DNA of 64,000 bases, taken from assembly GCA_023819145.1 (NCBI GenBank), contig JAMWCW010000008.1, positions 5,584 through 69,583 of the forward strand. The letters run 5' to 3'. Made by a program: the position numbers and the translations under genes. The notes under the pieces are model-generated. The model was not told where the DNA came from. It worked only from the letters and a program-made list of their open reading frames with translations, and did not search any database. This DNA comes from Candidatus Omnitrophota bacterium. Lineage in GTDB: Bacteria > Omnitrophota > Gorgyraeia > DTHP01. Positions 19,848-40,588 of this stretch are shown here, in pieces (the stretch's first letter is position 1; the number at the start of each line of letters is the position of its first letter).

Positions 19848-21554
19848 ATGGCAATAAGAGAAACTTTAAAATTAGGAGAGATGTTAATTGAGGCAGGGGT
19901 AATTACTCCTGAACAACTAGATGCGGGGCTAAAAGAACACAAAAGAACCAAGGAATTTTTAGGGATTACTTTAGTGAAAATGGGGTTTGTAAGCGAAGAG
20001 GTTCTTTTCCCTATTCTTTCCAAACAATTAGGCATTCCTTTTGTGCGCATAAGAGAAACCAAGATAGAGCCAGAGATTATCAAAAAGGTTCCCGCAAAAT
20101 TTGCTTCTTACTATAAACTTATGCCCGTTAAGATGGAAAATGGAATACTGGTGGTTGCGGTGACTGATCCTTTGGATATTCATACCATTGACGATATAAG
20201 ACTACTTTTAGGCTACGAGGTAAAACCGGTTTTAGCAGGAGAAAAAGATATCATTGAGGGGATAAAAAAATATTATGGCGTAGGCGCGGGAACAGTAGAG
20301 AAAATGATGGAGAAGACAGTAGTTGAGGAGACAGAGAAAGTTACGGAAGTAGTAACTGAAGAAGTAGAGGAGTTGGCGGAAGACGCTTCGGTAATAAAAT
20401 TTGTTAATCAATTGCTTACTCAAGCAGTAGAAGAGCGGGCTACCGATGTGCATATTGAACCCTACGAAGATGAGCTTAAAGTGCGTTTTCGTATAGACGG
20501 GGTTTTAAACGACATCTCTGTCCCGGCGGGAATTCGCCATTTTGCTTCGGCAATTGTTTCCCGCATCAAAATTATGTCTAATTTGAATATTGCTGAACGC
20601 CGACTTCCTCAGGATGGAAGAATAATTATTAAGATTAAAGGAAAAGATTACGACCTGCGTATTTCTATTATTCCCTGTGTTTTTGGAGAAAGTGTAGTGA
20701 TAAGAATCTTAAGCCCGGGGATGCTTTATAGCCTGGAAGAGCTTGGTCTTTCGGAGCGAGATTTAAAAATCCTTGAAGAAATGATTGCTAAGCCGCATGG
20801 GATTATCTTTAATACCGGACCCACCGGAAGCGGAAAGACCACTACTCTCTATGCCTGTCTAAATAAGATAAATAAACCCGGGATAAAGATTATTACCATT
20901 GAAGACCCTGTAGAATACCAACTAAAAGGGATAGTGCAACTGCAGGTTCATCCCAAGATTGGCTTTACCTTTGCAGCAGGGTTGCGTTCGATATTAAGAC
21001 ATGACCCCGATGTAATCATGGTGGGAGAAGTGCGTGATTTAGAAACTGCGGAGACCGCTATTCGCGTGGCTTTGACCGGGCATCTTGTGTTTTCTACCTT
21101 ACATACCAATGACGCGAGTGGAGGAGTTACCCGCTTAATTGATATGGGCATTGAACCATTTTTGGTCGCTTCTTCTGTAGAATGTATTATTGCTCAGCGC
21201 TTAGTAAGACTAATTTGTCCTGATTGTAAAAAAGCGATAAAGCCCAGTAAAGATGTATTGGAGGAATTAGAAGTAATGGAGAATGTAGATATTGACAAAA
21301 TAACCATCTTTGAAGGTAAGGGATGTGAAAAATGCAAGTTTACCGGCTATCGGGGAAGAACGGGAATCTATGAATTTTTAGTTATCAATAATGAAATAAG
21401 AAAAATGATTATGGAGCGACTTTCCAGCGACCAGATTAAGAAAAAGGCAATGGAGATGGGAATGCGTACTCTGCGTCAGGATGGCTGGGAAAAAGTGCTT
21501 AAGGGTCTCACTACCCCGGCAGAAGTAATGCGTGTCACTCAGCGCGAGGAGTAA
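19848..21554 (+). CDS. gspE: type II secretion / type IV pilus assembly ATPase (GspE/PilB family)
   Basis: N-terminal GSPII_E_N-like domain, Walker A GPTGSGKTTT, Asp/His boxes, and a C-terminal tetracysteine CPDC...CEKC. Confidence 0.9.
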   Translation: MAIRETLKLGEMLIEAGVITPEQLDAGLKEHKRTKEFLGITLVKMGFVSEEVLFPILSKQLGIPFVRIRETKIEPEIIKKVPAKFASYYKLMPVKMENGILVVAVTDPLDIHTIDDIRLLLGYEVKPVLAGEKDIIEGIKKYYGVGAGTVEKMMEKTVVEETEKVTEVVTEEVEELAEDASVIKFVNQLLTQAVEERATDVHIEPYEDELKVRFRIDGVLNDISVPAGIRHFASAIVSRIKIMSNLNIAERRLPQDGRIIIKIKGKDYDLRISIIPCVFGESVVIRILSPGMLYSLEELGLSERDLKILEEMIAKPHGIIFNTGPTGSGKTTTLYACLNKINKPGIKIITIEDPVEYQLKGIVQLQVHPKIGFTFAAGLRSILRHDPDVIMVGEVRDLETAETAIRVALTGHLVFSTLHTNDASGGVTRLIDMGIEPFLVASSVECIIAQRLVRLICPDCKKAIKPSKDVLEELEVMENVDIDKITIFEGKGCEKCKFTGYRGRTGIYEFLVINNEIRKMIMERLSSDQIKKKAMEMGMRTLRQDGWEKVLKGLTTPAEVMRVTQREE

Positions 21555-21789
21555 CACCTGCAACAAAAGTTCCACCCCGTAACTATAGTTACCTGTCATA
21601 ACTTCAATCATATTAGTGATTTACATTCATAATTCTTATTCTGCAACAAAAGTTTACAACTTTTTAAAATTTTTTTATTTCGGAAAATAAAATTTACGAA
21701 CATAACTAAAATTTACATATTTATGTAACATCTTGGTGAACATCAACTTAGGAATGGTTATTTCATCAGGCTAAAGTTCATTTCTTATC

Positions 21790-21805
21790 TGGCACAGAAA
21801 TTGCT
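21790..21805 (+). promoter_or_regulatory. sigma54 (RpoN) -24/-12 promoter
   Basis: TGGCAC-agaaa-TTGC matches TGGCAC-N5-TTGC(A/T) exactly, about 155 nt upstream of the subtilase start. Confidence 0.45.
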
Positions 21806-21958
21806 TATTTTCAGGTGAGGCTCAAATAAAGGAGGCGTAAAATGAAGGGGTGGAGGAAAGAAAGAAGGGGAAAGAAAGGAAAGAAACTCTTTGAGCCTTA
21901 AAAAAATTCTCCCCCCCCGGCCCTTTGGGGCCGGAGGGATAAACAAAAAGGGGGTAAA

Positions 21959-24745
21959 ATGGATAAGAAAAGTAGGGGAAGAAAGCGTGGGGGGATAAAA
22001 TTTTTAAAGGGGGCGATTGAGATGAAAAAGAGAATTTATAACAAAAGAGGAGAAATTTTAAATCGCCTGTTTTTAGGATTAGGAGTGGTAATTTTGGGGT
22101 TAGCTTTAGCCATTGGGATAAAGGCTCTATTCTTTAAAGGAGTTTCTCCACTACAAGAGATGGCAAAAATTGAAGAGCCGGAAAAGGAGGAAACTCGGGA
22201 GATTGCCAAGGAAGAGCTTGCTTTAGAGGAGAATTCTTTTGAAATTCCTAAGCCGGCAATTACTAAATTAGAAAAACCTGTCAAAATGATAACTGAAAAG
22301 GTAGATGTTGTAGCATATTTAAAGGAAAGAGGTTTAGAGATTAAAGAAGTAAAGCCTAAAGAAACCTTAAACAGACTTCTTGCCCAACATCCGGAAATTA
22401 CCCAGAAGGCAAGAGAATATCTAGATAAAACTGATTTACTTCTTACTAAACCTGGTTCTTATGTTCCTGGCGAAATAATGATAAGGCAAGTTTTGCCCGA
22501 GGGGAAAATAGAATATACAAAACTTAAAGTAGAGGAAGGAAGGGAGCGGGAAGCAATCAAAGAGGCTAATAATATTGAAGGAGTAGAAGCCTATTTAAAT
22601 AGAATAATTCCTATCACTTTATTAAAACGTTATAATCTTCCTTCTCTGCCCAAACCACCTGTGGTTAAACCAGTGGTTAGTGATTATTGGCCTAATGACC
22701 CGGATTATTTGGAAGGAAAACAATGGGCGCTAGAGGTATTGGAGATAGCCGATGCGTGGGAAGTGGTAAAGGAGTATTATGAAAAAAGTTGCGAACAACT
22801 TCATACTGCTACAAGTTCCGATAGTAGAGGAGTTAAGACATTAGTAATCAGAACCAATTCAACACCACCTCCTCCTGAGCCAATTCCTATTTGCGAAGCT
22901 AACTATCCGGAAATAAAAATAGCCATTATTGATACGGGTTGTGACCTTAACCATCCGGATTTAGCGGAAAACATTGATAAAGATTTAGATTACGATTTTG
23001 TAAATGACGACCAAGAAGCAGATGATGATAATGGCCATGGCACACATTTAACAGGAATCATTGGTGCGGTAATAAATAATGGAATTGGCATTGCGGGAAT
23101 TGTCCCTACCCCAAAACTCATTATTATCAAAGCACTGGATGCTGAAGGAGAGCAGGTAGAGGCTGATGTGTTAGCTGAGGCTATAGCTTATGCGATTGAA
23201 AAAGAAGCGAGAATTATCAACATGTCGTGGGGAACTTGGGAGGATTTGATGGAAGAGCCAGTTTTAGAAGATGCTTTTGAACTTGCCTTTTCCAGTGATA
23301 TTTTATTAGTAGCCGCAGCGGGAAATCATGCCGGTAAAGGAAGAAATGGAGAAGATTGTGTTTTATATCCGGCAAGATATAGAAAGGTTTTGGGTGTAGG
23401 AGGGACCGATTTTGTGGATGAACGCTGGGAAACTGCAGAACGAGATTATGGAGGAACGGCTACTGATAATCCTTGGTATGGAAAACCATTCGAGAGTGCT
23501 TATGGAGAAGGGGTAGATATTTTTGCACCGGCAGGGGATAAATTAGAGGGAGACATTTATAGTACACTACCTGACGATACTTACGGTTATTTAGCAGGGA
23601 CATCTATGTCCAGTGCTTTTGTTACAGGGATTGCGGGTTTGATTTTAACCTTAAATCCTGAACTTGACAAAGATACGCTACGAGAGTTAATCCTTGCTAC
23701 TGCTGAAGAAATAGAAATTGAGGGAACACTAGCAAAAAGAATCAATGCTTACAATGCGGTAGAAGAAGCATTTTCTTTCTCTATAAAGGAAGAAGATAAC
23801 GAAGATGAAGAAGAAGATAATGAAGAAGCTGAAGAAGAAGATAATGAAGAAGCTGAAGGAACTGTTCCTGAAGATGAAATTTGGATTAAGGGTAAAGTAA
23901 CGGAAGATGGAGAAGCTAAAGAAGGAATTACTGTTAAACTTATGTTAAAAGACAAAAATGATGAAAACAGGCAAACCCAGGAAGCCAAGACCGATAAAGA
24001 TGGGAAATACTTGATAAAATTCACTAAACTGGATAAAACTAAAAAATATAATTTAGACCGCCTTGAGCCTAAAAAACAAACTAATGTTCTAAGAAATTTA
24101 GAGCCAGGAAAGGAGTATACGCATGATATTACGTTTGATATTATAGGATATGGAGGAGGAGGTGAAGAATGTGATAAGGCAAGCTGCAGCAAGTCCATTA
24201 CTGGTCAGGGAATGAGTTGCAGATGTACAATAAGAGGTTGTGAATGTAAAACTTCAAATGAGTGGGAGGAATATTGTAGAGGAACATGTTCAGACTGGGT
24301 TGCGGTAACATGTGGAGATGGTAAAACAAAATGGGTAAGATGGTGTGCTCCTGGTTGTGAAGGAAGCTACTCAGGAGGAGATCCCTACGAATATAGTAGT
24401 GAAGGAGAACCAGGAAGAGATTCTTATACTGCAGAATGTAAAAATGGAGAGAGAGATGAAGTGGGCAACGTATGCATGTTCGGTAAGTGGTGTGGTCCTG
24501 GTTCAAATATATTGGAAGGATGTACCCCCAAAAAACCGACACCTACGCCGACACCGACGCCGACACCTACGCCGACACCTACGCCGACACCTACGCCTAC
24601 GCCGACACCTACGCCGACGCCGACACCTACACCGACACCGACGCCGACACCGACACCGACACCAGAAGGAACACCGACACCGACGCCAGAAGGAACAACC
24701 GACGCCGACACCGACGCCGACACCGACACAACGCTATGCGAGTGA
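21959..24745 (+). CDS. membrane-anchored/secreted subtilisin-like serine protease (S8) with acidic repeat, Cys-rich domain and (PT)n linker
   Basis: N-terminal TM/signal anchor. S8 triad motifs ([33 protein letters not shown]). (EEDNEEA)x2. An approximately 110-aa domain with 18 Cys. About 40 PT dipeptides at the C-terminus. Confidence 0.8.
24541..24720 (+). repeat. tandem 12-nt repeat (CCGACACCTACG-like) encoding the (PT)n linker
   Basis: Visible periodicity; the alternative-frame ORFs in the track here are artefacts of the repeat. Confidence 0.85.
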
Positions 24746-24749
24746 AACA

Positions 24750-24780
24750 AAAAGGGGTCAGACCCCTTTTGGCAATTTTT
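24750..24780 (+). terminator. rho-independent terminator after the subtilase gene
   Basis: AAAAGGGGTC-A-GACCCCTTTT palindrome followed by a T-run. Confidence 0.55.
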
Positions 24781-24864
24781 TTCAAAAAAGTGCCTGACCC
24801 CATATCTTGCTGACCCCATATCTATATCTTTACTTTTTGCTTTTACACCCCTTAAAATTTACAC

Positions 24865-24892
24865 TTGACAATTCTTATGATTGTGTTATACT
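24865..24892 (+). promoter_or_regulatory. orphan strong sigma70 promoter with extended -10 (TTGACA, 16 nt spacer, TGtTATACT)
   Basis: Near-consensus elements with no CDS downstream before terminator-like hairpins. Confidence 0.45.
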
Positions 24893-24908
24893 TTATTAAA
24901 AAGGGCCT

Positions 24909-24935
24909 AAAAAAGGGGCCTGACCCCTTTTTGAC
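24909..24935 (+). terminator. terminator-like hairpin AAAAAGGGG-cctga-CCCCTTTTT
   Basis: GC stem flanked by A and T runs; it could terminate either strand. Confidence 0.45.
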
Positions 24936-24968
24936 ATAAGAATCCTGACCCCTTTTTGACATAAGAAT
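24919..24968 (+). repeat. perfect 25-bp tandem duplication (CCTGACCCCTTTTTGACATAAGAAT x2)
   Basis: Direct reading of the sequence. Confidence 0.85.
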
Positions 24969-25014
24969 CTTCCTTCAAAATTTAAGTTTAGATTTTCTCC
25001 TGCCACGTAGTCTG
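24961..25014 (-). pseudogene. remnant copy of the 3' end of the OMP gene at 25504..26313
   Basis: Approximately 54 nt about 87% identical to 25545-25598. It would encode DYVAGENLNLNFEGRFL but an in-frame TAA lies upstream and homology is lost downstream. Confidence 0.45.
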
Positions 25015-25189
25015 ACAAATGTTAGATAAAGAGGTTTTTTAGTTAAATGGTGAGCTTTAAAATTTTAATTTTTTAATTAGGCGTGTTTATGACGCTTTTC
25101 TGAAATATATTCAGTAATTTTGGCAAAGAGGAAGAGAATTAACATTATTATTCCCACACCTAATAACGCAATTTCTGTGATAGCCATTA

Positions 25190-25381
25190 TTAATCCTCCT
25201 TCAATGGAAGGGTTAGGAATCCGATAATTCCCATAGCTAAAGCTAAACAAATTCCTAACACTAAGATACGCAAATTAATCTTTTCCGAGAATAAAGTACC
25301 AATAACTATGATTGTAACAATATACTTTGCTACATCAATAAACATTTTTCCTAATTCTATTCTTCGAAAATAATATTTCAT
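25190..25381 (-). CDS. hypothetical small membrane protein
   Basis: 63-aa ORF with two hydrophobic helices. Confidence 0.3.
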   Translation of the reverse strand: MKYYFRRIELGKMFIDVAKYIVTIIVIGTLFSEKINLRILVLGICLALAMGIIGFLTLPLKED

Positions 25382-25503
25382 TCTTTTATCAAAGTTAGTT
25401 TAACAAAACAATAAAAATATGTCAAGAAATTTAAAACTCTCTTTGTAAAGTTTTAAGAATCGCAGAGTATCTTTTTAGCAATTAAGAAATTGAGAATAGT
25501 TTT

Positions 25504-26313
25504 TTAAAACACCCAATTTACGGCAAAGCTTCCCGCAGTTTCATCTAAGAATCTCCCTTCAAAGTTTAAGTTTATGCTTTCTCCTGCCAAGTAGTCTGTT
25601 CCCAAGAAGATGCCAAAGTTTTTATCTGCTTCGTATTTGTTATTATCTGCCCAGCCTGAGTCTTTGGGTTCTTTTATGGTGGTGCGCATATCAGAGTATC
25701 TTATGCCAAAATAAGGAGTAAAATTATTAATTTTTTTAGCCAGATAAGGAGCAATATGCCATTCTTGGACCACAAAAGATTTATACTTTGTAGAATTGCC
25801 CTCTTCATTTAATTTTGCTTTACTTTGCGATCTTAAATACTGCAAATCACAGCCCACCATCCAGTCGTTTAACCAGTCGCTCTTAAACCAATATCCTCGA
25901 TAATTATTTTTGTTAAAACGATAGACTCCTTTTAGCCCTAATCCATAAGTAACTCCCAAGTCAGTATTAAATTTATCGGTAGCAGTTTTTACACCGCCGT
26001 TGTAGATTTCGTCTTTTAAAGTATAATCCGCTACGCCTAATTTTAGATAAGCCTCCAGATTATCTAAAAGCCCATAAGAAGCTTTTACTGTAGCTTGGTA
26101 AGTTTTATTTATTTTTGCATTTTTTATCTCATCTCCTACGAGAAGGCCCGAGGAACTTTTAAAATTCAATTTCCTCTCAAAAATGAATGAAGAATCCACC
26201 CCCACCCCTAACCTACCTTGTCCCTGCGTTTCTGCACCTCCAATGCTTGCGCCATGAGCAAGAGTAGGAAGAAAAATTAAAACCACCATACTTAAGAAAA
26301 ATATTTTTTTCAT
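25504..26313 (-). CDS. outer-membrane beta-barrel protein (porin/OmpA-barrel-like)
   Basis: Signal peptide MKKIFFLSMVVLIFLPTLAHGA, alternating amphipathic strands, aromatic-rich, C-terminal ...AVNWVF ending in Phe. Confidence 0.55.
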   Translation of the reverse strand: MKKIFFLSMVVLIFLPTLAHGASIGGAETQGQGRLGVGVDSSFIFERKLNFKSSSGLLVGDEIKNAKINKTYQATVKASYGLLDNLEAYLKLGVADYTLKDEIYNGGVKTATDKFNTDLGVTYGLGLKGVYRFNKNNYRGYWFKSDWLNDWMVGCDLQYLRSQSKAKLNEEGNSTKYKSFVVQEWHIAPYLAKKINNFTPYFGIRYSDMRTTIKEPKDSGWADNNKYEADKNFGIFLGTDYLAGESINLNFEGRFLDETAGSFAVNWVF

Positions 26314-26546: not shown

Positions 26547-26553
26547 TATATGG

Positions 26554-27357
26554 GTGTTTAATTTCTTGTTAGCTTTCTTATTTTCTGTTATAATTTTTCC
26601 CATGAGTTTTGTGGTCGTTATCCCTATTTACAATGAAAAAGAACACATAAAGCCTCTGATTAAAGAGATTTTAGCAGTGGAAAATGTTTCTAAAATTATT
26701 GTCATTGACGATAATTCTTCCGATGGGACGGGAGGAGTTTTAGATGAACTCAAAGAGGAAGTTTGGCAATTAAAAGTTATACATCGTCCTCAAAAATTGG
26801 GTTTAGGAACCGCTTATATTGAAGGATTTAGACTTGCTTTAAAAGAAGATTGTAATTTTATTCTTCAGATGGATGGAGATTTTTCTCATGACCCAAAATA
26901 CATTCCTCAAATGCTTGAAGCTATAAAGACTTGCGATTTGGTGATTGGTTCACGCTATATTTCGCAAGGAGGAATTAAAAATTGGAGCCTTTGGCGGAGA
27001 TTATTAAGTAAAGTAGCAAGTATTTATGTCCGCATCATCACAAAAATGCCTCTTAATGATCCCACTAGTGGTTTTAAATGTTTTAGGAGAAAAGTTCTGG
27101 AAAAAATTACTTTGGATAAAATACACTCGCAGGGTTATGCTTTTCAAATCGAAATGAATTATTTAGTCTGGGGAAATAATTTTCGCATTAAAGAAATTCC
27201 CATTGTTTTTTACGAACGAAAAAGAGGAAAATCAAAACTTAACCTGAGAATAATTCTTGAAGCCATGTGGCGTGTCTGGGAACTACGTTTTGGAAACGAA
27301 ATGATTCGAAGAATAACGAATCGTACAATGATATTTGGATTATTCGTTGTCATTTGA
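26554..27357 (+). CDS. GT2 polyprenol-phosphate mannosyl/glycosyltransferase (Dpm1/Ppm1-like)
   Basis: VVVIPIYNEKEHI, VIDDNSSDGT, LQMDGDFSHDP, VIGSRY, DPTSGFKCFRR. The start is GTG at 26554 or ATG at 26602. Confidence 0.8.
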   Translation: MFNFLLAFLFSVIIFPMSFVVVIPIYNEKEHIKPLIKEILAVENVSKIIVIDDNSSDGTGGVLDELKEEVWQLKVIHRPQKLGLGTAYIEGFRLALKEDCNFILQMDGDFSHDPKYIPQMLEAIKTCDLVIGSRYISQGGIKNWSLWRRLLSKVASIYVRIITKMPLNDPTSGFKCFRRKVLEKITLDKIHSQGYAFQIEMNYLVWGNNFRIKEIPIVFYERKRGKSKLNLRIILEAMWRVWELRFGNEMIRRITNRTMIFGLFVVI

Positions 27358-27369
27358 TACTCTCGTTGA

Positions 27370-29226
27370 TTAATAATTTACCTCAAATATACGAAAAAAT
27401 CCCGATTCCATTTCTGTTTTATAGATTTCTTTAAAGCGGTTCGATTTAAGAAAAGTCCGCAGATTGGGTTTAAGTTCTTTTTCATAAGGACTGATGACAA
27501 TATGAGTGATTTTATATTTCTTGATGAAGGTTAAATCTGCGATACGATAAATCTCTTGTATATCTTTTTCTATCTCATCATATTTATATCCATGAGACCA
27601 GAGCCATCCCCGATAGCCCAAGATAATACTCCTTCCACTTAACATAGAAACAGGATGATTATGAGTATCTGAGGTTAAAATTAAAGCAGAAGGTGTTATG
27701 TTTTTTCTTACCCAAGAGGCAATCGCTTGTTCTTTCTTATTTGCCATTACAAAACTTATACGATTAAGGTAAATGTAGTCAATTACTCCAGAAAATACTG
27801 AAAAAAATAACAGGATAATTACTAAAAATAATCGGTCAGGTTTTTTCCAACGCGAGGTTTCTAAAATCTTTATCGGAGTAAAACTGGCAATAACACAACT
27901 TATGAAAAACCAATGCAGGAAATATTTAGCGTTGTCCCAGTCCAAGGGATGAACCATGATAAAGTTGGCCAAAAGAAAGATTATAAGAAAAGGTAGATAA
28001 AAAATAATCTCTTTTTTTCTTACCAGAAATAAACCTTTGATGAGTAGAAAGAAAATAAATCCGAAGTTATAAATCCAAAAAAGAAAAATGAGTATAGGAT
28101 TAGGTGAATTTAGCATCCAGCCCGGTTTGAGCCAAAAAGATTTATGTAAGGTGTTGCTAATGAGATAAAATACTTGAGGTAGACTTACGATAATCGCCGG
28201 AACGATAAAATAAATCCATTCTTTTCGGAGACGAAAGATGAAAAGAATTAAAGAAACAAAAATTAAAACTATAAAAGAAGAAGTATGGATCAATGGGAGA
28301 CAACCTAAAAGAAATCCTCCGAGGATAAGATTCTGTACGGAAATTCGCGGTTCGTTATTTTTAAAAAATTCTTTTAGAAGAATAAGATAGATAAATACGG
28401 AAATAGCCATTCCCCAGATAATTGTTCTCTGTGAAAGGAAAAGGACTGAAAGTGCATTTCCCCAGACAAGCCCTTTGGAATCAATTTTAGTATAGAAAGA
28501 TTGGGCAAAGAATATTTCTTTTGGCTCTTTTCCTAAAGCAAAGAGAAAACCAAAATTTCCATTAAGGAAGAGAAGAAGCAGACAAAATAACGCCGCAATT
28601 TCTGAATGGCTAAATTCTTTAGTAAAAAGAAAAATTATAGAAATAAGCCCAATTCCTAAGATTAGGTTAATAAAAACAATAGAATTTACATAACTTAAAC
28701 CCCCCTTATACATAATTGCTGAAAGAAAATCAGTGAGGAAGGGATAGATAAGTTTATGTTTTACGAGGAGAGGGTGGTTTAAGGTTAAAGGGGTTTTTTC
28801 CGAAAAATGCATCATATAAGTAAGATGGAGGGCATAATCTCCCCAGGCGGTAGACATTGCTCTTAAATTTCCTTGCGTATCAAACTTAAAGGTATTGAAA
28901 TTAACTAAAGAAAAGATTAAGCTGAAGAGGATAATGGTTAAAAGATAAGTTTTAGAGGGAAGAATTATTGAAGGAAATTTTTTCTTTTGAGCATATTTTA
29001 AAAGAGCCAGAGAGAAGAATACAGAAATTATAGTTACTACCAAAATTAATTTTATATTCAGTGAGCCAATAATCAGGGACAATATAAAGGTTATCCAAGT
29101 GGTAAGCGTAAAACCCAGAATTATCCCTAAAGTAAATTTTTCCTCAATCCGTGGGAATCCCCGAAAATATAAAGCAATACTTGTTCCTAAGAGAAAACTT
29201 GCTAAACAAAAAATTATCCCTATCAT
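27370..29226 (-). CDS. polytopic membrane protein, possible GT-C glycosyltransferase partner
   Basis: Approximately 14 TM helices. It abuts and is transcribed with the PMT-like gene at 29227..30726. Confidence 0.35.
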   Translation of the reverse strand: MIGIIFCLASFLLGTSIALYFRGFPRIEEKFTLGIILGFTLTTWITFILSLIIGSLNIKLILVVTIISVFFSLALLKYAQKKKFPSIILPSKTYLLTIILFSLIFSLVNFNTFKFDTQGNLRAMSTAWGDYALHLTYMMHFSEKTPLTLNHPLLVKHKLIYPFLTDFLSAIMYKGGLSYVNSIVFINLILGIGLISIIFLFTKEFSHSEIAALFCLLLLFLNGNFGFLFALGKEPKEIFFAQSFYTKIDSKGLVWGNALSVLFLSQRTIIWGMAISVFIYLILLKEFFKNNEPRISVQNLILGGFLLGCLPLIHTSSFIVLIFVSLILFIFRLRKEWIYFIVPAIIVSLPQVFYLISNTLHKSFWLKPGWMLNSPNPILIFLFWIYNFGFIFFLLIKGLFLVRKKEIIFYLPFLIIFLLANFIMVHPLDWDNAKYFLHWFFISCVIASFTPIKILETSRWKKPDRLFLVIILLFFSVFSGVIDYIYLNRISFVMANKKEQAIASWVRKNITPSALILTSDTHNHPVSMLSGRSIILGYRGWLWSHGYKYDEIEKDIQEIYRIADLTFIKKYKITHIVISPYEKELKPNLRTFLKSNRFKEIYKTEMESGFFRIFEVNY

Positions 29227-30844: not shown

Positions 30845-31540
30845 ATGATAAGAAACATTTCGGTTTTTTTCCCTGCTTATAATGAAGAAAAAAATATCGA
30901 AAAGGTAGTTTTATCTACTTTAGATTTTTTAAAAGAAATTACTTCCGATTATGAGATAATTATTGTTAACGATGGGAGCAAAGATAGAACAGGAGAAATT
31001 GCAGAAGATTTATCTAAAAAAAATCCACAGGTTAAAGTGGTCCATCACTCTAAAAATTTAGGTTATGGCTCGGCACTTACTTCTGGATTTAGAAATTCTA
31101 CCAAAGATTTGGTTTTCTTCATGGATAGTGATAACCAATTTGATATCAAAGAAATAAGAAATTTATTGCCTCTTTTAGAGAGCTTTGATGTAGTGGTGGG
31201 TTATCGGCTAAGAAGAAAGGACTCTTTTCATCGTAAATTGAATGCCTGGCTTTTTAATCTATTGGTAAATATCTTGTTTTGTTTAGGAATAGAAGATGTG
31301 GATTGCGGGTTTAAGTTATTTAAAAAAGAAGCAGTAGAAAATATAAAATTGGAATCAAAAGGAGCTTTAATCTCAACAGAATTATTGGTGAAAATTAAAA
31401 AAAGGGGTTTTAGAATAAAGCAAGTAGGAGTGCACCATTATCCACGGATGCACGGGAAACAAACCGGTACAAACTTTAAGGTGATTTTAAGGTTTTTTAA
31501 GGAATTGATTAAGATGGGATGGAAACTAAGATTTAGTTAA
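30845..31540 (+). CDS. GT2 polyprenol-phosphate glycosyltransferase (ArnC/GtrB-like)
   Basis: ISVFFPAYNEEKNI, IIIVNDGSKDRT, FFMDSDNQFD, VVGYR. Confidence 0.8.
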   Translation: MIRNISVFFPAYNEEKNIEKVVLSTLDFLKEITSDYEIIIVNDGSKDRTGEIAEDLSKKNPQVKVVHHSKNLGYGSALTSGFRNSTKDLVFFMDSDNQFDIKEIRNLLPLLESFDVVVGYRLRRKDSFHRKLNAWLFNLLVNILFCLGIEDVDCGFKLFKKEAVENIKLESKGALISTELLVKIKKRGFRIKQVGVHHYPRMHGKQTGTNFKVILRFFKELIKMGWKLRFS

Positions 31541-31578: not shown

Positions 31579-31585
31579 GAGGGGT

Positions 31586-31930
31586 ATGAAGCCATTCTTT
31601 CTTATTTTAATATCGGTGATTTTAGGAGTAATTGGGCAAGTATTCTTGAAAAAAGGAATGATTGGATTTAAGGGAGAATTTTCTACGCTATTAATTCATA
31701 TTATGCAGAATCCTTTTATTATTCTTGGCTTTTTCTTTTATCTTTTAAGCAGTCTTATCTGGTTAGTGATTCTTTCTAGGGTCGATTTAAGTTACGCATA
31801 TCCTATGTTAAGCTTGGGTTACATTGTGATTGTTTTTCTCTCCTGGTTAATTTTTAAGGAAAATATTACCTTTTGGCGCTGGGCGGGGGTAGTTTTAATT
31901 TCTTTTGGCATAGGTTTATTGCAGAAATAA
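31586..31930 (+). CDS. small 4-TM EamA/SMR-like protein (ArnE/ArnF-like polyprenyl-phosphate-sugar flippase subunit)
   Basis: 114 aa with 4 TM helices and SYAYPMLSLGYIVIVFLSWLIFKE. It sits next to an ArnC-like GT2 and is divergent to a PMT-like GT-C gene. Confidence 0.5.
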   Translation: MKPFFLILISVILGVIGQVFLKKGMIGFKGEFSTLLIHIMQNPFIILGFFFYLLSSLIWLVILSRVDLSYAYPMLSLGYIVIVFLSWLIFKENITFWRWAGVVLISFGIGLLQK

Positions 31931-31975: not shown

Positions 31976-33943
31976 ATGAAAAAATTTATAATCTTTAGCA
32001 TCTTTCTCCTGATTATTAATTTAAATCTCCTCTTTGCTGAAGGAGAAGTTTCTTCTTTACTTATAGCCCGTGAAAAAGATTATCAAGTAGAGAGATTAAG
32101 AAAATGGCTCGGAAATAACTTCCCTGAAATAGAAATAAAGCTACTTGATTTTGATGCAAAAGAAGCAAAGGAAATTTTATCCTTTTTAAAATTAGATTTT
32201 ATTCCTGCAGTAGTTTTTGAAAATCCTTCTTTATCCGAGGAGACGATAAAGAAGTTTCGAATTATCACCGAGGAAAACTATGCATACATTCCTCGCGAAG
32301 TCCTTAGGAGAATAGTAAGTTTGGAATTATATAAGCGGGAACTTATTCCCAATAGGTTAGAGATTTTCAGTATGAGTTTCTGCCCTTACAGTAATAGGGC
32401 AGAGAAGCGTTTAATTAATTATTTAAAAATCAGTAAATTAAATAATATAGATTTTAAAATTCACTATCTGGTGAATCTTAAAGAAGGTAAATTGGATGCT
32501 CTTCATGGTTTGAGAGAATTGAATGAGAACCGGAGAAGAGTAGTCATACAAAAATACTGGCCGAATAAGCTCTTTGATTATCTTTTATTACGTGATAAAT
32601 ATTCTTATCGACAAGCAATTAGAACCTTGGGAATAGGTTACGCTGAGCTAAAGGAAAAGTTGGTTGAGGCAGATAAGCTTTTACTCCAAGATTATCAATA
32701 CGCAAAGGAGTTAAATATTCATGCTTCTCCCACTTTTTTATGGCAGAATAAGTTTTTAATTTCCAGCCTTGAACAACTGACGATGTTCTCTCCTTTTGAC
32801 AAAGAGCACAAAATAGAAGAGCCAAACGCGGTGGTTGAAAAGAACATAAAAATACTTATGTTTTTTTCTCCCAAATGTCATGCCTGCCATAAGGTAAAGG
32901 AGGAATTTCTACCGGAAATTATCACCAAATACAAAAATTTGGTGGAAATAGTTTATTATAATATAGAAGAACCACAGAATTTTAGTTATTTAATGGAATT
33001 AGAAGAAAAATACGGTATTCTTGAGTCGGGGTCTATTCCCAAGATTTTTGTTGGTAATAACGTTCTAGTTGGAGCAGGTCAGATAAGGGAAAGTTTAGAA
33101 AAGATTATTCTCAAAGTTTCTGGAGAAAAGATGGTTTCTGTAACCAAGGAAAAGACAGATGAGAAAATTCCTGAAAGAATTATTAATCTCTTTAAAACCT
33201 TTACCTTTGGGACAATCATTTGGGCAGGATTAATTGACGGGATTAATCCTTGTGCCTTTACTACTTTAGTCTTTTTTCTATCATTCTTAAGTTTTGCGGG
33301 TTATCGTAAAAGAGAAGTTTTTTATCTGGGAACATTCTTTATTTTAAGCATCTTCTTAACTTATTTTTTTCTGGGCTTAGGAATTTTTAAATTCATTACG
33401 CAACTAAAAATATATCATACCTTAGTAGAAATCTTCTATATGCTAGTAGGCATCTTGGTAATCATCCTTGCTTTGATTAATTTCCTTGAATTCTTCCGTT
33501 ATAGAAAGACAAAAAATCTTGAAGATATAAAATTGAAACTTCCTCACGCTATTAAATGGCGAATTCAATCAATTATTGGAAGAGGATATAGAAAAGAAAA
33601 AGGCACAGAAGAAAAACCAATAGGTATATTGAGACTTGTCTTATTAAGTTTAGTGATTGGTTTTATCGTCTCTATTCTGGAATCAGTTTGCACGGGGCAA
33701 GTGTATTTGCCGACGATAACTTTTATTACTAAAGTTTCTGAGTTTAGAGTAAGAGCAATGCTTTATCTCTTTATTTATAATCTAATGTTTATTTTGCCGC
33801 TGGTAGTTATCTTTGTATTAGTGCTCTATGGACTGACTTCGGAGCGTTTTGCTAAGTTTGCTCAGCGGCATTTGGCAAAGATAAAATTACTTACAGCAAT
33901 ATTTTTCCTTGGTCTGTTTGTTTTACTCTGGAAATTGAGGTAA
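31976..33943 (+). CDS. thiol:disulfide interchange protein, DsbD/CcdA-type membrane domain fused to N-terminal thioredoxin-like domains
   Basis: Signal peptide, CPYS and CHAC thioredoxin-fold motifs, then a TM core with NPC and VCTGQ cysteines. Confidence 0.6.
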   Translation: MKKFIIFSIFLLIINLNLLFAEGEVSSLLIAREKDYQVERLRKWLGNNFPEIEIKLLDFDAKEAKEILSFLKLDFIPAVVFENPSLSEETIKKFRIITEENYAYIPREVLRRIVSLELYKRELIPNRLEIFSMSFCPYSNRAEKRLINYLKISKLNNIDFKIHYLVNLKEGKLDALHGLRELNENRRRVVIQKYWPNKLFDYLLLRDKYSYRQAIRTLGIGYAELKEKLVEADKLLLQDYQYAKELNIHASPTFLWQNKFLISSLEQLTMFSPFDKEHKIEEPNAVVEKNIKILMFFSPKCHACHKVKEEFLPEIITKYKNLVEIVYYNIEEPQNFSYLMELEEKYGILESGSIPKIFVGNNVLVGAGQIRESLEKIILKVSGEKMVSVTKEKTDEKIPERIINLFKTFTFGTIIWAGLIDGINPCAFTTLVFFLSFLSFAGYRKREVFYLGTFFILSIFLTYFFLGLGIFKFITQLKIYHTLVEIFYMLVGILVIILALINFLEFFRYRKTKNLEDIKLKLPHAIKWRIQSIIGRGYRKEKGTEEKPIGILRLVLLSLVIGFIVSILESVCTGQVYLPTITFITKVSEFRVRAMLYLFIYNLMFILPLVVIFVLVLYGLTSERFAKFAQRHLAKIKLLTAIFFLGLFVLLWKLR

Positions 33944-33946
33944 GCT

Positions 33947-35164
33947 ATGCCTAAATTTGTTTATAAAGCAAAAGAAGAACCAGAGAAAATAGTGGAAGGG
34001 ACAATAGAGGCAGAGAGTCGTGAACAGGTGATAGACCGTCTTCAGACAATGGGCTATTATCCCCTAAGCATCGTCGAAGATAGTGTTTTGAAAGAGGGAG
34101 AAAAATTTTCTTTACTCCGTGAAGAAGGGAAAGTGAAGCGTAGCGAATTAACTTTATTTACCCGTCAACTTTCCGACCTTATTGATTCGGGTATTACGCT
34201 AATCAGAGCTTTAAATCTTATTGAAGAACAGACTCCGGGTGTGATGATGCGCCAGTTAATTTCTTCCCTTGCAAAAGAGATAAAAGATGGTAAAAGACTT
34301 TCCGAATCACTTACAAAGTTTCCGCAGGTTTTCTCTCGGCTCTATGTGGCTTTAGTAAAGGCAGGAGAAGTGGGGGGTATGTTGGATGACGTTCTTTTGG
34401 GTTTAGCGGAATATTTAGAGAAAGAAGAAGAATTAAAAGCAAAGGTGCGGAGTGCACTTGCCTATCCTATACTCATGGCATGTGTGGGAGTGGCAACAGT
34501 TTTTATTCTCATGAGTTTTGTTATTCCTCGGCTTGCGGGGATGTTTAAAGATTTAGGACAAAGTCTACCGCTTCCTACTTTAATGCTGATTAGAATGAGT
34601 GATTTTTTGAAAGATTTCTGGTGGCTTATTCTATCCTTTCTTGCCTTTTTATATTTTGTTGTTCAACGGCGTGCACATACTCCGGAAGGAGGAATTATCC
34701 TTGACCGGTTAAAATTAAAAATTCCTCTTTTTGGAGAATTAATCAAGAAGTCGGAAGTTGCGCGCTTCTGTCGCACCCTTTCTACACTTCTAAAGAACGG
34801 TGTTCCTATTCTGGGAGCTTTGGATACTGTTATCCCCGTAATTGGGAACAGGGTAATTAAGAAAGAGATTGAGAAGATGTATAACGATGTGCGCGATGGG
34901 ATTAGCCTTTCTAAAACGATAACCAAGAGTCCATATTTTCCTCCTTTGGTTTCTAATATGATTGCGGTGGGCGAGGAAGGTGGCGTGTTAGAGAATTCGC
35001 TGATGAAAGTGGCAGAGTCCTTTGAGCGAGAAGTAGAGAGAGTGGTTAAGGTGATTACTTCTTTAATTGAACCGGCGTTAATTTTGGTAATGGGAACCGT
35101 TGTGGGCTTTATTGTAATTTCTATGCTTTTACCGATATTTCAGTTAAATCTTGTGTCATGGTAA
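33947..35164 (+). CDS. gspF: type II secretion / T4P platform protein (GspF/PilC)
   Basis: Two T2SSF repeats and 3 TM helices; located 4 nt after the preceding gene. Confidence 0.85.
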   Translation: MPKFVYKAKEEPEKIVEGTIEAESREQVIDRLQTMGYYPLSIVEDSVLKEGEKFSLLREEGKVKRSELTLFTRQLSDLIDSGITLIRALNLIEEQTPGVMMRQLISSLAKEIKDGKRLSESLTKFPQVFSRLYVALVKAGEVGGMLDDVLLGLAEYLEKEEELKAKVRSALAYPILMACVGVATVFILMSFVIPRLAGMFKDLGQSLPLPTLMLIRMSDFLKDFWWLILSFLAFLYFVVQRRAHTPEGGIILDRLKLKIPLFGELIKKSEVARFCRTLSTLLKNGVPILGALDTVIPVIGNRVIKKEIEKMYNDVRDGISLSKTITKSPYFPPLVSNMIAVGEEGGVLENSLMKVAESFEREVERVVKVITSLIEPALILVMGTVVGFIVISMLLPIFQLNLVSW

Positions 35165-35181
35165 AAGGGAGGTGATTTGGA

Positions 35182-35640: not shown

Positions 35641-35690
35641 GCAGAGAAAAAATTTTTTACACGAGGTAAGTCTAACTTAATTTATCAATT

Positions 35691-36200: not shown

Positions 36201-36594
36201 ACTAGGTTATATATTAGTGGAGACATTAATTACGGTAGTTGTTCTTGCGGTGGGTTTGACTTTGGCGATGAATGCTTTGGGTTCAGAAATTCATGCCCTG
36301 CGTATTTCCAAGAATTACACCCATGCCAGTTTCCTTTTAGAAGAAAAGCTTGCGGAGATAGAGAAAAAGGGTGAAATTGATATAGTTAACGAATGGAAAG
36401 AGGGCGAGGTTTCTGGCGGATTCAGTGGGGATTATGAAAATTTTAGATGGATAGCAAAAGTTGAGGTTATATATGATAAAGAAGGTAAACCTACCAATTT
36501 AGTACAGGTAGCGGTTACTGTAATCTGGAGGGAGGTTTTTAGAGAACGGGAGCTGACTGTAGTAACCATTATGCCAAAGAAAATTACTTCTTGA
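36184..36594 (+). CDS. minor pseudopilin (GspI-like)
   Basis: G|YILVETLITVVVLAV prepilin N-terminus; approximately 130 aa. Confidence 0.5.
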   Translation: MKCMNRLGYILVETLITVVVLAVGLTLAMNALGSEIHALRISKNYTHASFLLEEKLAEIEKKGEIDIVNEWKEGEVSGGFSGDYENFRWIAKVEVIYDKEGKPTNLVQVAVTVIWREVFRERELTVVTIMPKKITS

Positions 36595-38276: not shown

Positions 38277-39759
38277 TTTTTTTTCAAAATTAGAAGAATG
38301 GTATCAAAATTTAAAAGAGATATTTTCTTCGGCAAATTACTTTACCTGTTTAGAAATATCCGATACGCATCTGAAATTGGCACAGTTTGAGCGAAAAAAG
38401 GGAACGACGAATCTCGTTTATTTATTTACGCGGAATATTCCTCATCCAGATGACGAAACGATAGTTAAAACTTTGGAAACGGTGCTTTCGGAGATAAAAG
38501 TAAGAGGTTTGGTTTTAACCTGTCTTCCCCGTCATCAGACAACCGTGCGGTATATAAAACTTCCCTCAAGTAAACCTGAGGAACTAGCAGCGATGCTTGA
38601 TTTTCAGATAACTAAACAGATTCCTTATCCCAAGGAAGAAATTGTATATTCTTGTATTAAATTAGGAATAGATTCTACTGGCTATACCGATATACTCTTA
38701 GCCATTGTCCATCAGGAAACAGTTTCTAAACATTTGAAATTATTGAAAGGTTGTAACATTGAACCTGAGAGAATAAGTTTTAGGACACTGAATACCTGTG
38801 AATGGTTTTATGCTAGCTATCCTGATTGTAAAGAAACAGTTTTCCTTATTGATGTAGATACAATTTATACCGAGGTAAGCATAATTGTTCCTTCGGGTAA
38901 ACTCCTCTTTAGTCGCGCTATCAAAATAGGGGTAGAGGATTTAGAAAATGATGAAGATCTTAGAGTATTCAGGAATTTTAGAGATGAAATAAAACTTTCT
39001 CTTTCTACTTTTATGAAAGAGTATGCTGATTTAAAGGTGGATAAGATAATTCTTACAGGAGCCCTTGCTATATTGGACAGAATTAGGAATTATTTTAAGG
39101 ATGAGTTTGAGATAGAAATTGAGATAAAGATGCCTTTGGAAAAGATTGGATTTAAAAGAGATGTTTTGGAAGAGAACTGGTTTGATATACATCGGGTATC
39201 ACTCAATTCAGTATTAGGTTTGGGGCTGGGGAGAGATATTTTAGATAAGTTTAATCTTCTGCCCCTTCCGGAGATAAAGAGAAGGGATGAGGAGAAAAAG
39301 AAATACCAATTTATCTTTGGTATTATACTTATTGCTCTGATTATTTTGACTTTCGTAGGAATTATTTACAGGAAGTTTTACGAAAAGGCGTCTCTGGTGC
39401 GTTATTTGAATGATGAGTTGAAAAAAATAAATATAAGAGCACAGGGTTTGGAGGAGAAGAAGAGGAATTTAGAGTTAATAAAGGACCTTTTTTCAGATAG
39501 AAGCATAAGTTTAGATATCCTTGTTGAACTTTATAAGACAGTTCCTGCAGAAATAAATTTGGTAAATTTTGATTTTGAAGATGGTAAAGGACTTACTTTG
39601 AGAGGAACTTCTACGGAGATGGCAAGTGTGTTTAGATTTGTGGCTACGTTGGATAAATCTCCATACTTTTCTAATTCTCAGGTAAAATTTGTAAGGAAAC
39701 GAGTTGGCTCAGAAGGCTTAACCGATTTTGAAATATTTTCTCCTTTAAAAGGCAAATGA
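38266..39759 (+). CDS. PilM-PilN-like (GspL-like) assembly protein: cytoplasmic actin-like domain, TM, periplasmic domain
   Basis: Actin-fold PilM-like N-terminus, single TM (YQFIFGIILIALIILTFVGIIY), coiled C-terminus. Confidence 0.55.
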   Translation: MKINFFSKLEEWYQNLKEIFSSANYFTCLEISDTHLKLAQFERKKGTTNLVYLFTRNIPHPDDETIVKTLETVLSEIKVRGLVLTCLPRHQTTVRYIKLPSSKPEELAAMLDFQITKQIPYPKEEIVYSCIKLGIDSTGYTDILLAIVHQETVSKHLKLLKGCNIEPERISFRTLNTCEWFYASYPDCKETVFLIDVDTIYTEVSIIVPSGKLLFSRAIKIGVEDLENDEDLRVFRNFRDEIKLSLSTFMKEYADLKVDKIILTGALAILDRIRNYFKDEFEIEIEIKMPLEKIGFKRDVLEENWFDIHRVSLNSVLGLGLGRDILDKFNLLPLPEIKRRDEEKKKYQFIFGIILIALIILTFVGIIYRKFYEKASLVRYLNDELKKINIRAQGLEEKKRNLELIKDLFSDRSISLDILVELYKTVPAEINLVNFDFEDGKGLTLRGTSTEMASVFRFVATLDKSPYFSNSQVKFVRKRVGSEGLTDFEIFSPLKGK

Positions 39760-40289
39760 AGTTAATTAGTCAATTTTCAAAACGTGAAAAGTTTCTTTTA
39801 TTTGCTACGGTAGCAGTAATTGTTATAGCAGTTTCAATCAATTTTTTTGTGACTCCTGTGGCAAAAAGATGGCGCCGTATGAACAATCAGATTTCTAATC
39901 TCTATAATAAACTTTCTCGGTATACAAATATATTGACTCTGGAGAAAGAGATTGAAACAAAATATAAGACTTATGCAGATTACCTTAAGGTAAAAGGCTC
40001 AAGCGAAGAGGCATTGGCTTCAGTATTGCAGGAGATAGAGAAACTTGCCAGAACTTCGGGGGTGGCAATTACTAACATCGTGCCTTCAGGAATGGAGACC
40101 AAAGATTTTTATAATAAATTTGAGGTGAGAATGGATGTTGAGTCCGAGATTAACTCACTGGTGCGCTTTCTCTATGAGCTTCAAAGTTCAAAACACCTCT
40201 TTAGAGTTGTGCGTCTAAACATCAATACCAAAGCAGGAACCCAAGATGTTTTACGCTCTTCTATACAACTGATTAAAATATTTATTTGA
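39756..40289 (+). CDS. PilO/GspM-like bitopic protein
   Basis: N-terminal TM plus coiled-coil/ferredoxin-like domain; its position in the operon supports the call. Confidence 0.4.
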   Translation: MKLISQFSKREKFLLFATVAVIVIAVSINFFVTPVAKRWRRMNNQISNLYNKLSRYTNILTLEKEIETKYKTYADYLKVKGSSEEALASVLQEIEKLARTSGVAITNIVPSGMETKDFYNKFEVRMDVESEINSLVRFLYELQSSKHLFRVVRLNINTKAGTQDVLRSSIQLIKIFI

Positions 40290-40588
40290 ATATGCCATTT
40301 TATGAATATCGTTGTCTAAATTGTGGCAAGATAACTACACTCTATAAAAAATCTGCATTTGAAAAAGAAGGATTCTTTTTGTGGTGGAAAACATACCGCT
40401 GTAATTTTTGTAGAAGTAGAAAATTGGAGAAAGTGTATTCAAGTTTTTCGGTATCTAAAAGAGAATCCACCATGGAGGTGCTTAATGAATTGCAGCGTAT
40501 GGGCCCGATCAACTTTGTTCCTGACTATAGCCCCAAAGGTCCTCCGCCGGGAGGATGCCCTTATACTCAAGAAGGGGATAGAAAATAA
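40286..40588 (+). CDS. FmdB-family zinc-ribbon protein
   Basis: YEYRCLNCGK ... CNFCRS (CxxC...CxxC). Confidence 0.5.
   Translation: MNMPFYEYRCLNCGKITTLYKKSAFEKEGFFLWWKTYRCNFCRSRKLEKVYSSFSVSKRESTMEVLNELQRMGPINFVPDYSPKGPPPGGCPYTQEGDRK

Follow-up and report, generated by a model that had tools for sequence, protein, structure and literature searches.

The locus described here raises the question of how a type II secretion system (T2SS) can come to lie in two pieces, and of whether the genes standing between these pieces have anything to do with secretion. In a 64-kb window (the whole stretch of DNA that was analysed) of a Candidatus Omnitrophota metagenome-assembled genome (MAG), gspE, which encodes the T2SS ATPase, is separated from gspF, which encodes the inner-membrane platform protein, by 12.4 kb. 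An earlier note on this DNA, made from the sequence alone, had placed the split at about 12 kb, and our gene calls, which combine a listing of open reading frames (ORFs) with Pfam and NCBIfam scans, confirm it. Being a matter of gene order, the split raises no question of chance, and on this contig it is real. Both products are 100% identical to NCBI proteins (GspE, MCM8784140.1; GspF, MCM8784150.1), whose numbering runs consecutively along one 73-kb contig with nine annotated genes in between, namely the eight described here and one small ORF in a non-coding "scar". Our favoured answer, to which we give about an even chance, is that this is one functional T2SS remodelled within a small clade of Omnitrophota, in which the genes from gspF to gspM have become linked to a candidate cargo and to genes for its maturation.

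Origin of the split layout

The secretion genes of the window, with the gene that closes their row, are the following.

19848..21554, + strand: gspE, T2SS ATPase with an N-terminal MshEN domain (Pfam T2SSE 1.6e-137, 458 bits; MshEN 4e-21)
33947..35164, + strand: gspF, inner-membrane platform protein (Pfam T2SSF 1.4e-66, two repeats, 222 bits)
35182-35640, + strand: gspG, major pseudopilin (T2SSG 73 bits, N_methyl match)
35691-36200, + strand: gspH (NCBIfam XpsH/GspH matches, below cutoff)
36184-36594, + strand: gspI (N_methyl match under the curated cutoff)
36599-37267, + strand: gspJ (N_methyl match)
37230-38276, + strand: gspK (T2SSK_1st 27.8 bits against a cutoff of 26.2)
38266-39759, + strand: PilM-PilN fusion, GspL-like (Pfam PilM_2 2e-13, PilN 1e-8)
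39756-40289, + strand: GspM/PilO (Pfam T2SSM_b 2e-7, PilO 2e-7, above cutoff)
40286..40588, + strand: Zn-ribbon protein (Pfam Zn_ribbon_8), overlapping the gspM stop by 4 nt and forming the right end of the conserved block

Five species of the clade carry a locus from gspF to gspM, that is, the window, L001/L002, L003, L005/L006 and L095, the last of them on a 390,656-bp JGI contig. Their GspF proteins are 87% (L001/L002, the closest), 79% (L095), 70% (L003) and 65% (L005) identical to that of the window. The nearest outgroup is L010 (GspE 72%, GspF 61%), followed by the more distant Omnitrophota L007-L009 (about 50%). The order in L010 is ACAD-ETFb-ETFa-gspE (acyl-CoA dehydrogenase and electron transfer flavoprotein genes before the ATPase gene), a spacer of 627 bp, gspF-G-H-I-J-K-PilMN-M, a GspC-like gene and a secretin gene, the last two with Pfam matches to T2SSC (1.8e-4) and Secretin (5.7e-48). 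In L007-L009, gspE and gspF lie 15-88 bp apart, and the row from gspF to gspM is followed by genes for MerR, an AAA ATPase, GspC and secretin. In the window, the left neighbours of gspE are likewise ACAD (16373-17527), ETFb (17607-18467) and ETFa-Fer4 (18554-19756), a flank also present in L010, L091, L092 and L094. Because gspE and gspF-M are contiguous in L010, which has the same left flank, and in L007-L009, they once formed one operon; and since L010 is the nearest outgroup by GspE as well as by GspF, the window gspE and the row from gspF to gspM are two halves of one ancestral system. The earlier note had asked whether gspE adjoins gspF elsewhere, and it does so in all of these outgroups, so that the split layout is derived and not ancestral.

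A by-eye reading of the L010 spacer, made with no terminator or promoter scan, found a hairpin followed by a T-run and a promoter-like site, so that the junction between gspE and gspF looks like a pre-existing operon boundary that would be permissive for gene gain. The same spacer (L010 7330-7956) contains a palindromic element of about 110 nt that resembles a miniature inverted-repeat transposable element (CCCCGTTAGAAA...TTTCTAACGGGG), together with a basic mini-ORF. Y1-transposase genes or fragments adjoin T2SS genes in L005, L007 and L008 and may act as agents of rearrangement; in L007 and L008 they are Y1_Tnp genes near gspE, and among the gspF-M loci of the clade only that of L005 has a Y1-transposase-like fragment.

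The other end of the locus has also changed, as none of the clade loci (window, L001/L002, L003, L005, L095) has GspC or GspD after gspM. Essentially all ORFs of at least 100 aa in the 64 kb were scanned with Pfam, and none matched Secretin, T2SSC or Peptidase_A24, in agreement with the earlier statement that the window lacks secretin, GspC and prepilin peptidase. Of 307 secretin matches (E<=1e-30), ten NCBI-named ones among the best 120 were checked, and none bears an accession in the block of the window MAG (MCM8784xxx). A distal secretin and prepilin peptidase are probably encoded elsewhere in this genome. An ORF of 824 aa just past the region was considered as a missed secretin and rejected, its product being a GAF-PAS-GGDEF-HD-GYP protein. 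Position 40588, taken earlier as the end of the region, is the end of the Zn-ribbon ORF, and PilO stops at 40289.

What is left of the machine looks intact. GspE has the Walker A motif GPTGSGKT and a tetra-cysteine motif (CxxC...CxxC). A prepilin-peptidase site of the form G|FT(L/F)(V/I)E is present in GspG, GspH and GspJ, with the variant G|YILVE in GspI, and inspection of the GspK N-terminus found no clear site of this kind. The GspL slot is filled by the PilM_2+PilN fusion, which is architecturally equivalent and does not match the T2SSL model. Compared with L001, dN/dS is 0.06-0.24, with dS near saturation, for gspF, G, H, I, K, L and M (without gspJ) and for the gene directly before gspF, which encodes a 655-aa protein (0.11). 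The direction is clear: the split T2SS is under purifying selection, maintained and not decaying.

Two side observations concern the control of the ATPase. The second motif of the GspE MshEN domain (19848-20300) fits the c-di-GMP-binding pattern xLGxxLVxxGFVxxxxLxxxLxxQ, and a GAF-PAS-GGDEF-HD-GYP gene (40676-43150) follows right after the block and is also found near it in L003 and L005, which hints at c-di-GMP control of GspE.

The block between gspE and gspF

The two halves of the system are separated by the following elements.

21959..24745, + strand: S8 subtilase, 928 aa, candidate cargo (Pfam Peptidase_S8 6.7e-50)
24746..25503, no strand: the scar, non-coding, 758 bp (repeats, a fragment of the next gene, an orphan promoter)
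25504..26313, - strand: small outer-membrane beta-barrel protein (OMP), 269 aa, with signal peptide (weak Pfam OMP_b-brl, 2.3e-4)
26554..27357, + strand: GT2a, family 2 glycosyltransferase of the polyprenyl-phosphate sugar synthase type, AglJ/PpgS/ArnC-like (Pfam Glycos_transf_2 4e-29; NCBIfam)
27370..29226, - strand: polytopic membrane protein of 618 aa, with a 0-nt gap to the PMT gene
29227..30726, - strand: PMT, GT39-type protein O-mannosyltransferase homologue without MIR domain (Pfam PMT 2.9e-55, PMT_4TMC 3.4e-31)
30845..31540, + strand: GT2b, polyprenyl-phosphate sugar synthase type (Pfam 5.6e-35; NCBIfam ArnC/PgfS-like)
31586..31930, + strand: ArnE/ArnF-like small membrane protein of EamA/SMR type, candidate subunit of a lipid-linked sugar flippase (NCBIfam ArnF 3.6e-12, ArnE 1.5e-10, both under cutoff)
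31976..33943, + strand: exported thioredoxin (Trx)-fold thiol-redox membrane protein of 655 aa, stopping 3 nt before the gspF ATG

An indication that these genes belong together comes from L095, where all 17 genes of the window from the subtilase to the Zn-ribbon gene are found in identical order and on identical strands, with 30-80% identity (S8 55%, OMP(-) 77%, GT2a 62%, 618-aa protein(-) 65%, PMT(-) 54%, ArnE/F-like 80%, 655-aa protein 70%, GspF 79% and Zn-ribbon 77%). The only extra ORF in the L095 block codes for a 111-aa fragment between the PMT and GT2 genes (8529-8864); it resembles the N-terminus of an ArnT/PMT_2-type GT-C glycosyltransferase, with a YCDEF motif, and is seen as a pseudogene remnant. 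The right flank differs, being trpF/trpB in L095 versus GGDEF-hrcA in the window. As for gspE, the likely GspE of the L095 species (P0125, 91%) is encoded in the order ACAD-ETF-ETF-gspE followed by rpsO-pnp-ftsK on 5/5 contigs shown. The gene for P0125 and the L095 block probably share a contig; gspE would thus be detached in this species and the block would travel without it. The unit conserved today begins with the S8 subtilase gene and ends with gspM and the Zn-ribbon gene; it is not the stretch from gspE to gspM. The earlier view that the intervening genes are no random insertion holds, in that this block recurs in L095 in the same order and orientation, with gspE elsewhere and the right flank changed.

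Other relatives carry smaller versions. L001/L002 have OMP(-)-S8'-GT2a-ArnE-655aa-gspF...M (S8' denoting their subtilase; the OMP copy in L002 is partial), with identities of 62% for GT2a and 77-80% for the ArnE/F-like protein, a range that includes L095. In L003 the order is S8'-655aa-gspF...M, and in L005 a transposase-like fragment is followed by 655aa-gspF...M. Given their absence from L002, PMT, the 618-aa protein and GT2b are dispensable for the unit. The 655-aa gene directly precedes gspF in 5/5 clade species, with a 4-nt overlap in L001, and a Zn-ribbon orthologue occupies the same position in L095 and lies nearby in L003 and L005.

A different arrangement is found in L092 (GspE 93%) and L093 (GspE 82%), in which gspE is followed by another S8 subtilase, of FG-GAP type, and by a paralogous F-G-K mini-cluster. 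The mini-clusters (L092 9284-13152, L093 7103-10915) consist of an F gene 40-41% identical to the window gspF, short pseudopilin-like ORFs and a K-like gene; the G protein has 42% identity in L092, and its L093 counterpart is a 120-aa pseudopilin-like ORF that gave no match. Neither mini-cluster includes L, M, C or D; each may be an additional set of pseudopilus genes served by the same ATPase. L003 and L093 may stem from one organism, given their common metagenome and consistent identities.

No tRNA, no integrase or transposase domains and no flanking repeats were found for the block, and the window as a whole has neither tRNAs nor Rfam matches. The low GC content of 25-33.5 kb (0.30-0.33 versus about 0.40) was considered as a sign of an island or of horizontal transfer; it is not decisive, because gspH-M and the glycan cluster at 1-13 kb are equally AT-rich. 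This cluster (1-13900, GC 0.27-0.30) is of surface-glycan type, with genes for a methyltransferase, a GT1, a B12-radical SAM protein, several GT2s and NTP_transf_5, and includes a second PMT_2-family GT-C gene (11310-12782). In it a radical-SAM/SPASM gene (9295-10308, -) overlaps an HPr-kinase-C-like gene (10266-11201, -), an arrangement resembling peptide-maturase systems.

Predicted transcription signals divide the block. A terminator and promoter scan of 19500-36000, a sigma54 search of the window and the repeats of the scar gave the following features.

21790..21805, + strand: sigma54 -24/-12 match TGGCAC-N5-TTGCT, 154 nt upstream of the S8 start (consensus match only)
24750..24770, + strand: terminator-like hairpin with T-run, immediately after S8
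24865-24892: orphan sigma70-like promoter in the scar
24919-24968: exact tandem 25-nt repeat in the scar
24955-25014: copy in the scar of the 3' end of the OMP gene, 85% identical to 25539-25598

The sigma54 match is the sole perfect one in the window, and S8 looks monocistronic because the terminator-like hairpin directly follows it. Between the sigma54 site and S8 (21790-21958) lies a mini-ORF preceded by a Shine-Dalgarno sequence and encoding a very basic 19-aa peptide (MKGWRKERRGKKGKKLFEP), and a strong 12-bp GC hairpin (21912-21939) stands just before the S8 start; the two could form a leader or attenuator, one that has no Rfam match. The scar also holds two copies of CTGACCCCATATCT and two small minus-strand membrane ORFs, and its elements are traces of an earlier event in which the OMP gene was rearranged or duplicated. 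Strong sigma70-like promoters point towards OMP(-) and PMT(-), that of OMP being a perfect one at 26479-26450. The genes from GT2b to the Zn-ribbon gene, on the other hand, all read in one direction and are spaced by -38 to +50 nt, and from GT2b to 36000 there is only one same-strand terminator-like signal, which is weak and lies inside gspF.

The subtilase is the candidate cargo. It consists of an N-terminal hydrophobic signal or anchor, a pro-region, the S8 domain, an acidic linker, a beta-sandwich, a Cys-rich domain and a (PT)n tail of Pro-Thr repeats, with 15 Cys between residues 738 and 855 and 20 in the whole protein, and it is the only protein with a PT run in the 64-kb window. Six loci, from four or five species of the clade, have an S8 subtilase with a PT-rich linker next to T2SS genes, and subtilases with signal peptides and PT/SP linkers stand beside gspE or gspF in the window, L095, L002, L003, L092 and L093. 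The C-terminal part varies considerably. The L095 orthologue (55% identity over residues 133-753) keeps the PT linker and has a different C-terminal domain and 6 Cys, the L003 protein has 29 Cys, and the L002 protein has 7 and a PKD domain. Subtilases are thus recurrent T2SS neighbours across the clade, with varying C-terminal domains, and gene neighbourhood makes it plausible that S8 is cargo of this T2SS.

The 655-aa protein had been described as DsbD-like. It comprises a signal peptide, a DsbA-like domain with a CPYS motif, a Trx/Grx-like domain with a CHAC motif and a domain of six transmembrane (TM) helices. C426 (NPC, TM1) and C572 (VCTGQ, TM4) are invariant in 47 sequences, as are the CxxS and the CHAC-type CxxC. 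Thioredoxin-family Pfam matches occur in many relatives, all under the curated cutoffs (best E=3e-5), and searches of the PDB gave weak Trx and DsbA matches; an NCBIfam match to an ArsG-family transporter (E=9e-8) also falls under cutoff. The membrane domain may be homologous to that of DsbD, but the searches were largely negative: the window protein has no Pfam match in this domain and DsbD_TM is matched in 1/47 relatives (E=0.002), profiles of 4 or 47 sequences found no match in the PDB, and hhalign detected no internal repeat. In a single-sequence AlphaFold2 model, with a predicted local distance difference test score (pLDDT) of 54 and unusable for a fold search, helices 1 and 4 are broken at the Cys. 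A scan of GTDB with the 655-aa protein returned no close relative; its several hundred candidate matches, at 35-45% identity, all belong to a short form (about 370 aa) that is widespread among Omnitrophota and allied MAGs. Only 5/80 loci have a short-form copy within 10 kb of T2SS-type genes, one of them (L083) just a gspE-family ATPase of 33% identity, and since the short form is rarely near T2SS genes the long form beside gspF is clade-specific. The pairing put forward earlier, a DsbD for an 18-Cys domain, is weak, because the L095 subtilase has 6 Cys and no Cys-rich domain and that of L002 has 7, and the 655-aa gene is kept whatever the Cys content of S8.

PMT scores 188 bits to PF02366 and 109 bits to PF16192, and its only PDB matches are the yeast proteins Pmt1, Pmt2 and Pmt4 (E=2e-41 to 4e-32), which makes it Pmt-like and not ArnT-like; to the NCBIfam actinobacterial Pmt equivalog it scores 49 bits against a cutoff of 800. 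It is a genuine GT39-type enzyme. Its context (two GT2s, the ArnE/F-like gene and a PT-linker protein) is consistent with the transfer of mannose from polyprenyl-phosphate-mannose to Ser/Thr. The PMT gene lies 4.5 kb from the window's sole (PT)n-bearing protein. The 618-aa protein has no match in Pfam, NCBIfam or the PDB and no similarity to the PMT_2 protein of the window.

Competing explanations

In the remodelling that we favour, gspE would have stayed with its old left neighbours (ACAD-ETF), the accessory genes would have been recruited in front of gspF, at the junction that is already boundary-like in the outgroup, and gspC and gspD would have left the 3' end of the locus. The subtilase, expressed from its own sigma54-type promoter, would be exported by Sec and then matured in the periplasm, where the 655-aa Trx-fold membrane protein would carry out thiol-disulfide chemistry. 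Where PMT is present, the Pro/Thr linker would be O-glycosylated with a polyprenyl-phosphate sugar made by the GT2s and flipped by the ArnE/F-like protein. Finally, the pseudopilus, powered by GspE, would drive the subtilase out through a secretin whose gene lies at another site. Co-transcription and the redox and glycosylation roles are suggested by the neighbourhood.

Several observations weigh against this scheme. All of its functional links come from gene neighbourhood among fairly close relatives (GspF 65-87%). The closest relative, L002, has no PMT, 618-aa protein or GT2b, and ahead of its 655-aa gene L005 carries nothing but the transposase-like fragment. Orthologous or neighbouring subtilases do not conserve the Cys-rich domain (6-7 Cys in L095 and L002), and the long hydrophobic N-terminal segment of the window S8 could be a membrane anchor instead of a cleaved signal peptide. 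S8, OMP, GT2a and PMT/618-aa, which lie on both strands, have the look of transcription units of their own. What follows the orthologous gspE of L092 and L093 is a different S8 and a paralogous F-G-K set, and no secretin, GspC or prepilin peptidase has been linked to the window genome (10 of the 307 secretin matches checked).

The coherent island of secretion, maturation and glycosylation proposed in the earlier note survives in part: the block is conserved, the S8 gene recurs and PMT is genuine, whereas the Cys link is weak and PMT is absent from L002. The condition named there as refuting it, that gspE pairs with another pilus system, is touched upon by the paralogous F-G-K sets of L092 and L093. 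A bolder version would have a T2SS that has shed GspC and secretin from its operon and whose genes are fused to a maturation route reserved for PT-linker subtilases (the 655-aa protein, as a new long form with Trx fold and six TM helices, translationally coupled to gspF, and a GT39 PMT pathway), as the first case of PMT-type O-mannosylation feeding a T2SS in a diderm outside Actinobacteria; we regard this version as rather unlikely.

Among the alternatives, the one that survives best is that envelope genes have piled up neutrally at a permissive gspE-gspF junction, which already separated two transcription units, that they work independently of the T2SS, and that the order in L095 is simply inherited and not yet scrambled. 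This has a real, though minority, chance of being correct. The content of the junction varies as such hitch-hiking would predict, as L002 lacks PMT, the 618-aa gene and GT2b and has S8 placed differently, L003 has only S8 and the 655-aa gene, and L005 only the latter. The genes occupy both strands and have promoters of their own, with a terminator as well, and footprints of rearrangement are present (the OMP fragment, the tandem repeats, the GT-C fragment of L095). In addition, an unrelated low-GC glycan cluster with a second PMT_2 gene occupies 1-13 kb, and the short form of the 655-aa protein is encoded by ordinary genes that have no link to T2SS. However, the L095 block has stayed intact though both of its flanks have changed, the 655-aa gene, which also precedes gspF in L003 and L005, sits tightly against it or overlaps it in the window, L001/L002 and L095, and S8 recurs beside T2SS genes even at the paralogous loci of L092 and L093.

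It is improbable, in our estimation, that the glycosylation and thiol-redox genes work for the secretion machine, through modification or folding of its pseudopilins, and not for the cargo. There is precedent in type IV pili, whose pilin glycosyltransferases are encoded beside pilin genes (TfpO/PilO and TfpW of Pseudomonas aeruginosa, PglL of Neisseria). GT2b, the ArnE/F-like gene and the 655-aa gene are co-directional and contiguous with gspF-G-H-I-J-K, and GspG contains a pair of Cys (positions 70 and 90). Yet no pseudopilin has a Ser/Thr/Pro-rich stretch, GspH, GspJ and GspM have no Cys, the PT run is confined to S8, and L002 does without PMT though its pseudopilins are 65-78% identical to those of the window.

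More improbable still is a T2SS that truly has no secretin, either re-purposed as a periplasmic or envelope pseudopilus or on its way to loss. Such a state would fit the lack of GspC and GspD after gspM in every clade member and the fact that none of the ten secretin matches checked falls in the accession block of the window MAG. All genes are intact, however, and dN/dS values of 0.06-0.24 speak against decay; T2SS genes are scattered in other bacteria such as Legionella (lsp) and Acinetobacter; and the secretin check covered 10/307 matches in a MAG that may be incomplete. An assembly artefact, with a chimeric gspE-S8 junction and gspE really located elsewhere, is hardly credible, since the sister species' gspE does precede housekeeping genes but the junction has no repeat and a similar composition on both sides, the gspE-S8 adjacency is seen again in L092 and L093, and the NCBI protein numbers are consecutive on one 73-kb contig.

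Significance and comparison with known systems

Omnitrophota are uncultivated and often host-dependent or predatory nanobacteria, whose way of life is believed to depend on their surface and secretion machines. The locus offers a reconstructable case of a T2SS being taken apart and re-equipped, in which the ATPase was left behind, the pore genes were removed and protease, thiol-redox and glycosylation genes were added, and it supplies a specific candidate for the cargo. A functional linkage would carry PMT-type O-glycosylation of secreted proteins into a diderm phylum and give the T2SS a new accessory protein; without one, the gspE-gspF junction would still be a clean example of a gene-gain hotspot. 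Protein O-mannosylation outside Actinobacteria is of separate interest. For annotation, the locus is a warning: a T2SS locus that is incomplete in a MAG can be a conserved state under selection.

The accessory genes have their own counterparts. In Actinobacteria, proteins are O-mannosylated by Pmt together with Ppm1, and the window resembles that pathway in its MIR-less GT39 PMT, its GT2 polyprenyl-phosphate sugar synthase and a nearby Sec-exported protein with a Pro/Thr linker; it differs in the diderm Omnitrophota host and in the added ArnE/F-like gene and 618-aa partner. The 655-aa protein shares with DsbD, CcdA and ScsB a six-helix domain with invariant Cys in helix 1 (NPC) and helix 4 and a fused periplasmic CxxC Trx-fold, but it has no significant match to DsbD_TM or to any solved structure, does not possess the Ig-like domain of DsbD-alpha and has an extra DsbA-like CxxS domain.

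The canonical T2SS operon of Proteobacteria runs from gspC to gspO. The window is like it in the core set and order from E to M (ATPase, platform, GspG, H-I-J-K and an L/M-type pair), the order also seen in the Omnitrophota form of L007, L009 and L010, gspE-F-G-H-I-J-K-PilMN-M-(MerR-AAA)-GspC-GspD. It differs in the 12.4 kb between gspE and gspF, in the use of PilM-PilN as GspL and in the lack of GspC, GspD and peptidase at the locus. Scattered T2SS genes are familiar from the lsp loci of Legionella pneumophila and the gsp loci of Acinetobacter. As there, the parts of one system lie at different sites here, with gspE fully detached in the sister species (L091/L095); the difference is that the order of events can here be reconstructed from near relatives, and that gspF-M travels with a conserved accessory block.

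Some T2SS loci include their own substrate, such as pulA beside pulC-O in Klebsiella and the T2SS-beta locus of E. coli, yghJ(sslE)-pppA-yghG-gspC-M. The likeness consists in an exported hydrolase gene within or abutting the secretion genes, with an adjacency conserved in relatives. Those loci include pilotin, peptidase and secretin genes that are absent from the window locus, whereas the candidate cargo here, a PT-linker S8 subtilase, is accompanied by thiol-redox and lipid-linked glycosylation genes. Closest in phylogenetic terms are the T2SS-like loci of Omnitrophota whose position beside genes for giant extracellular proteins is conserved (West-Roberts et al., bioRxiv 10.1101/2023.11.21.568195; also 10.64898/2026.06.07.730766). 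The same phylum thus provides T2SS/type IV pilus-type loci beside a large exported protein proposed as cargo, but these contain gspD, rcpC-type genes and a rotamase, while the window has no gspD and flanks a subtilase of 0.9 kaa, a PMT and a Trx-fold protein. Since loci that embed their cargo, scattered T2SS genes and Omnitrophota cargo loci are already known, the locus is not a new kind of system.

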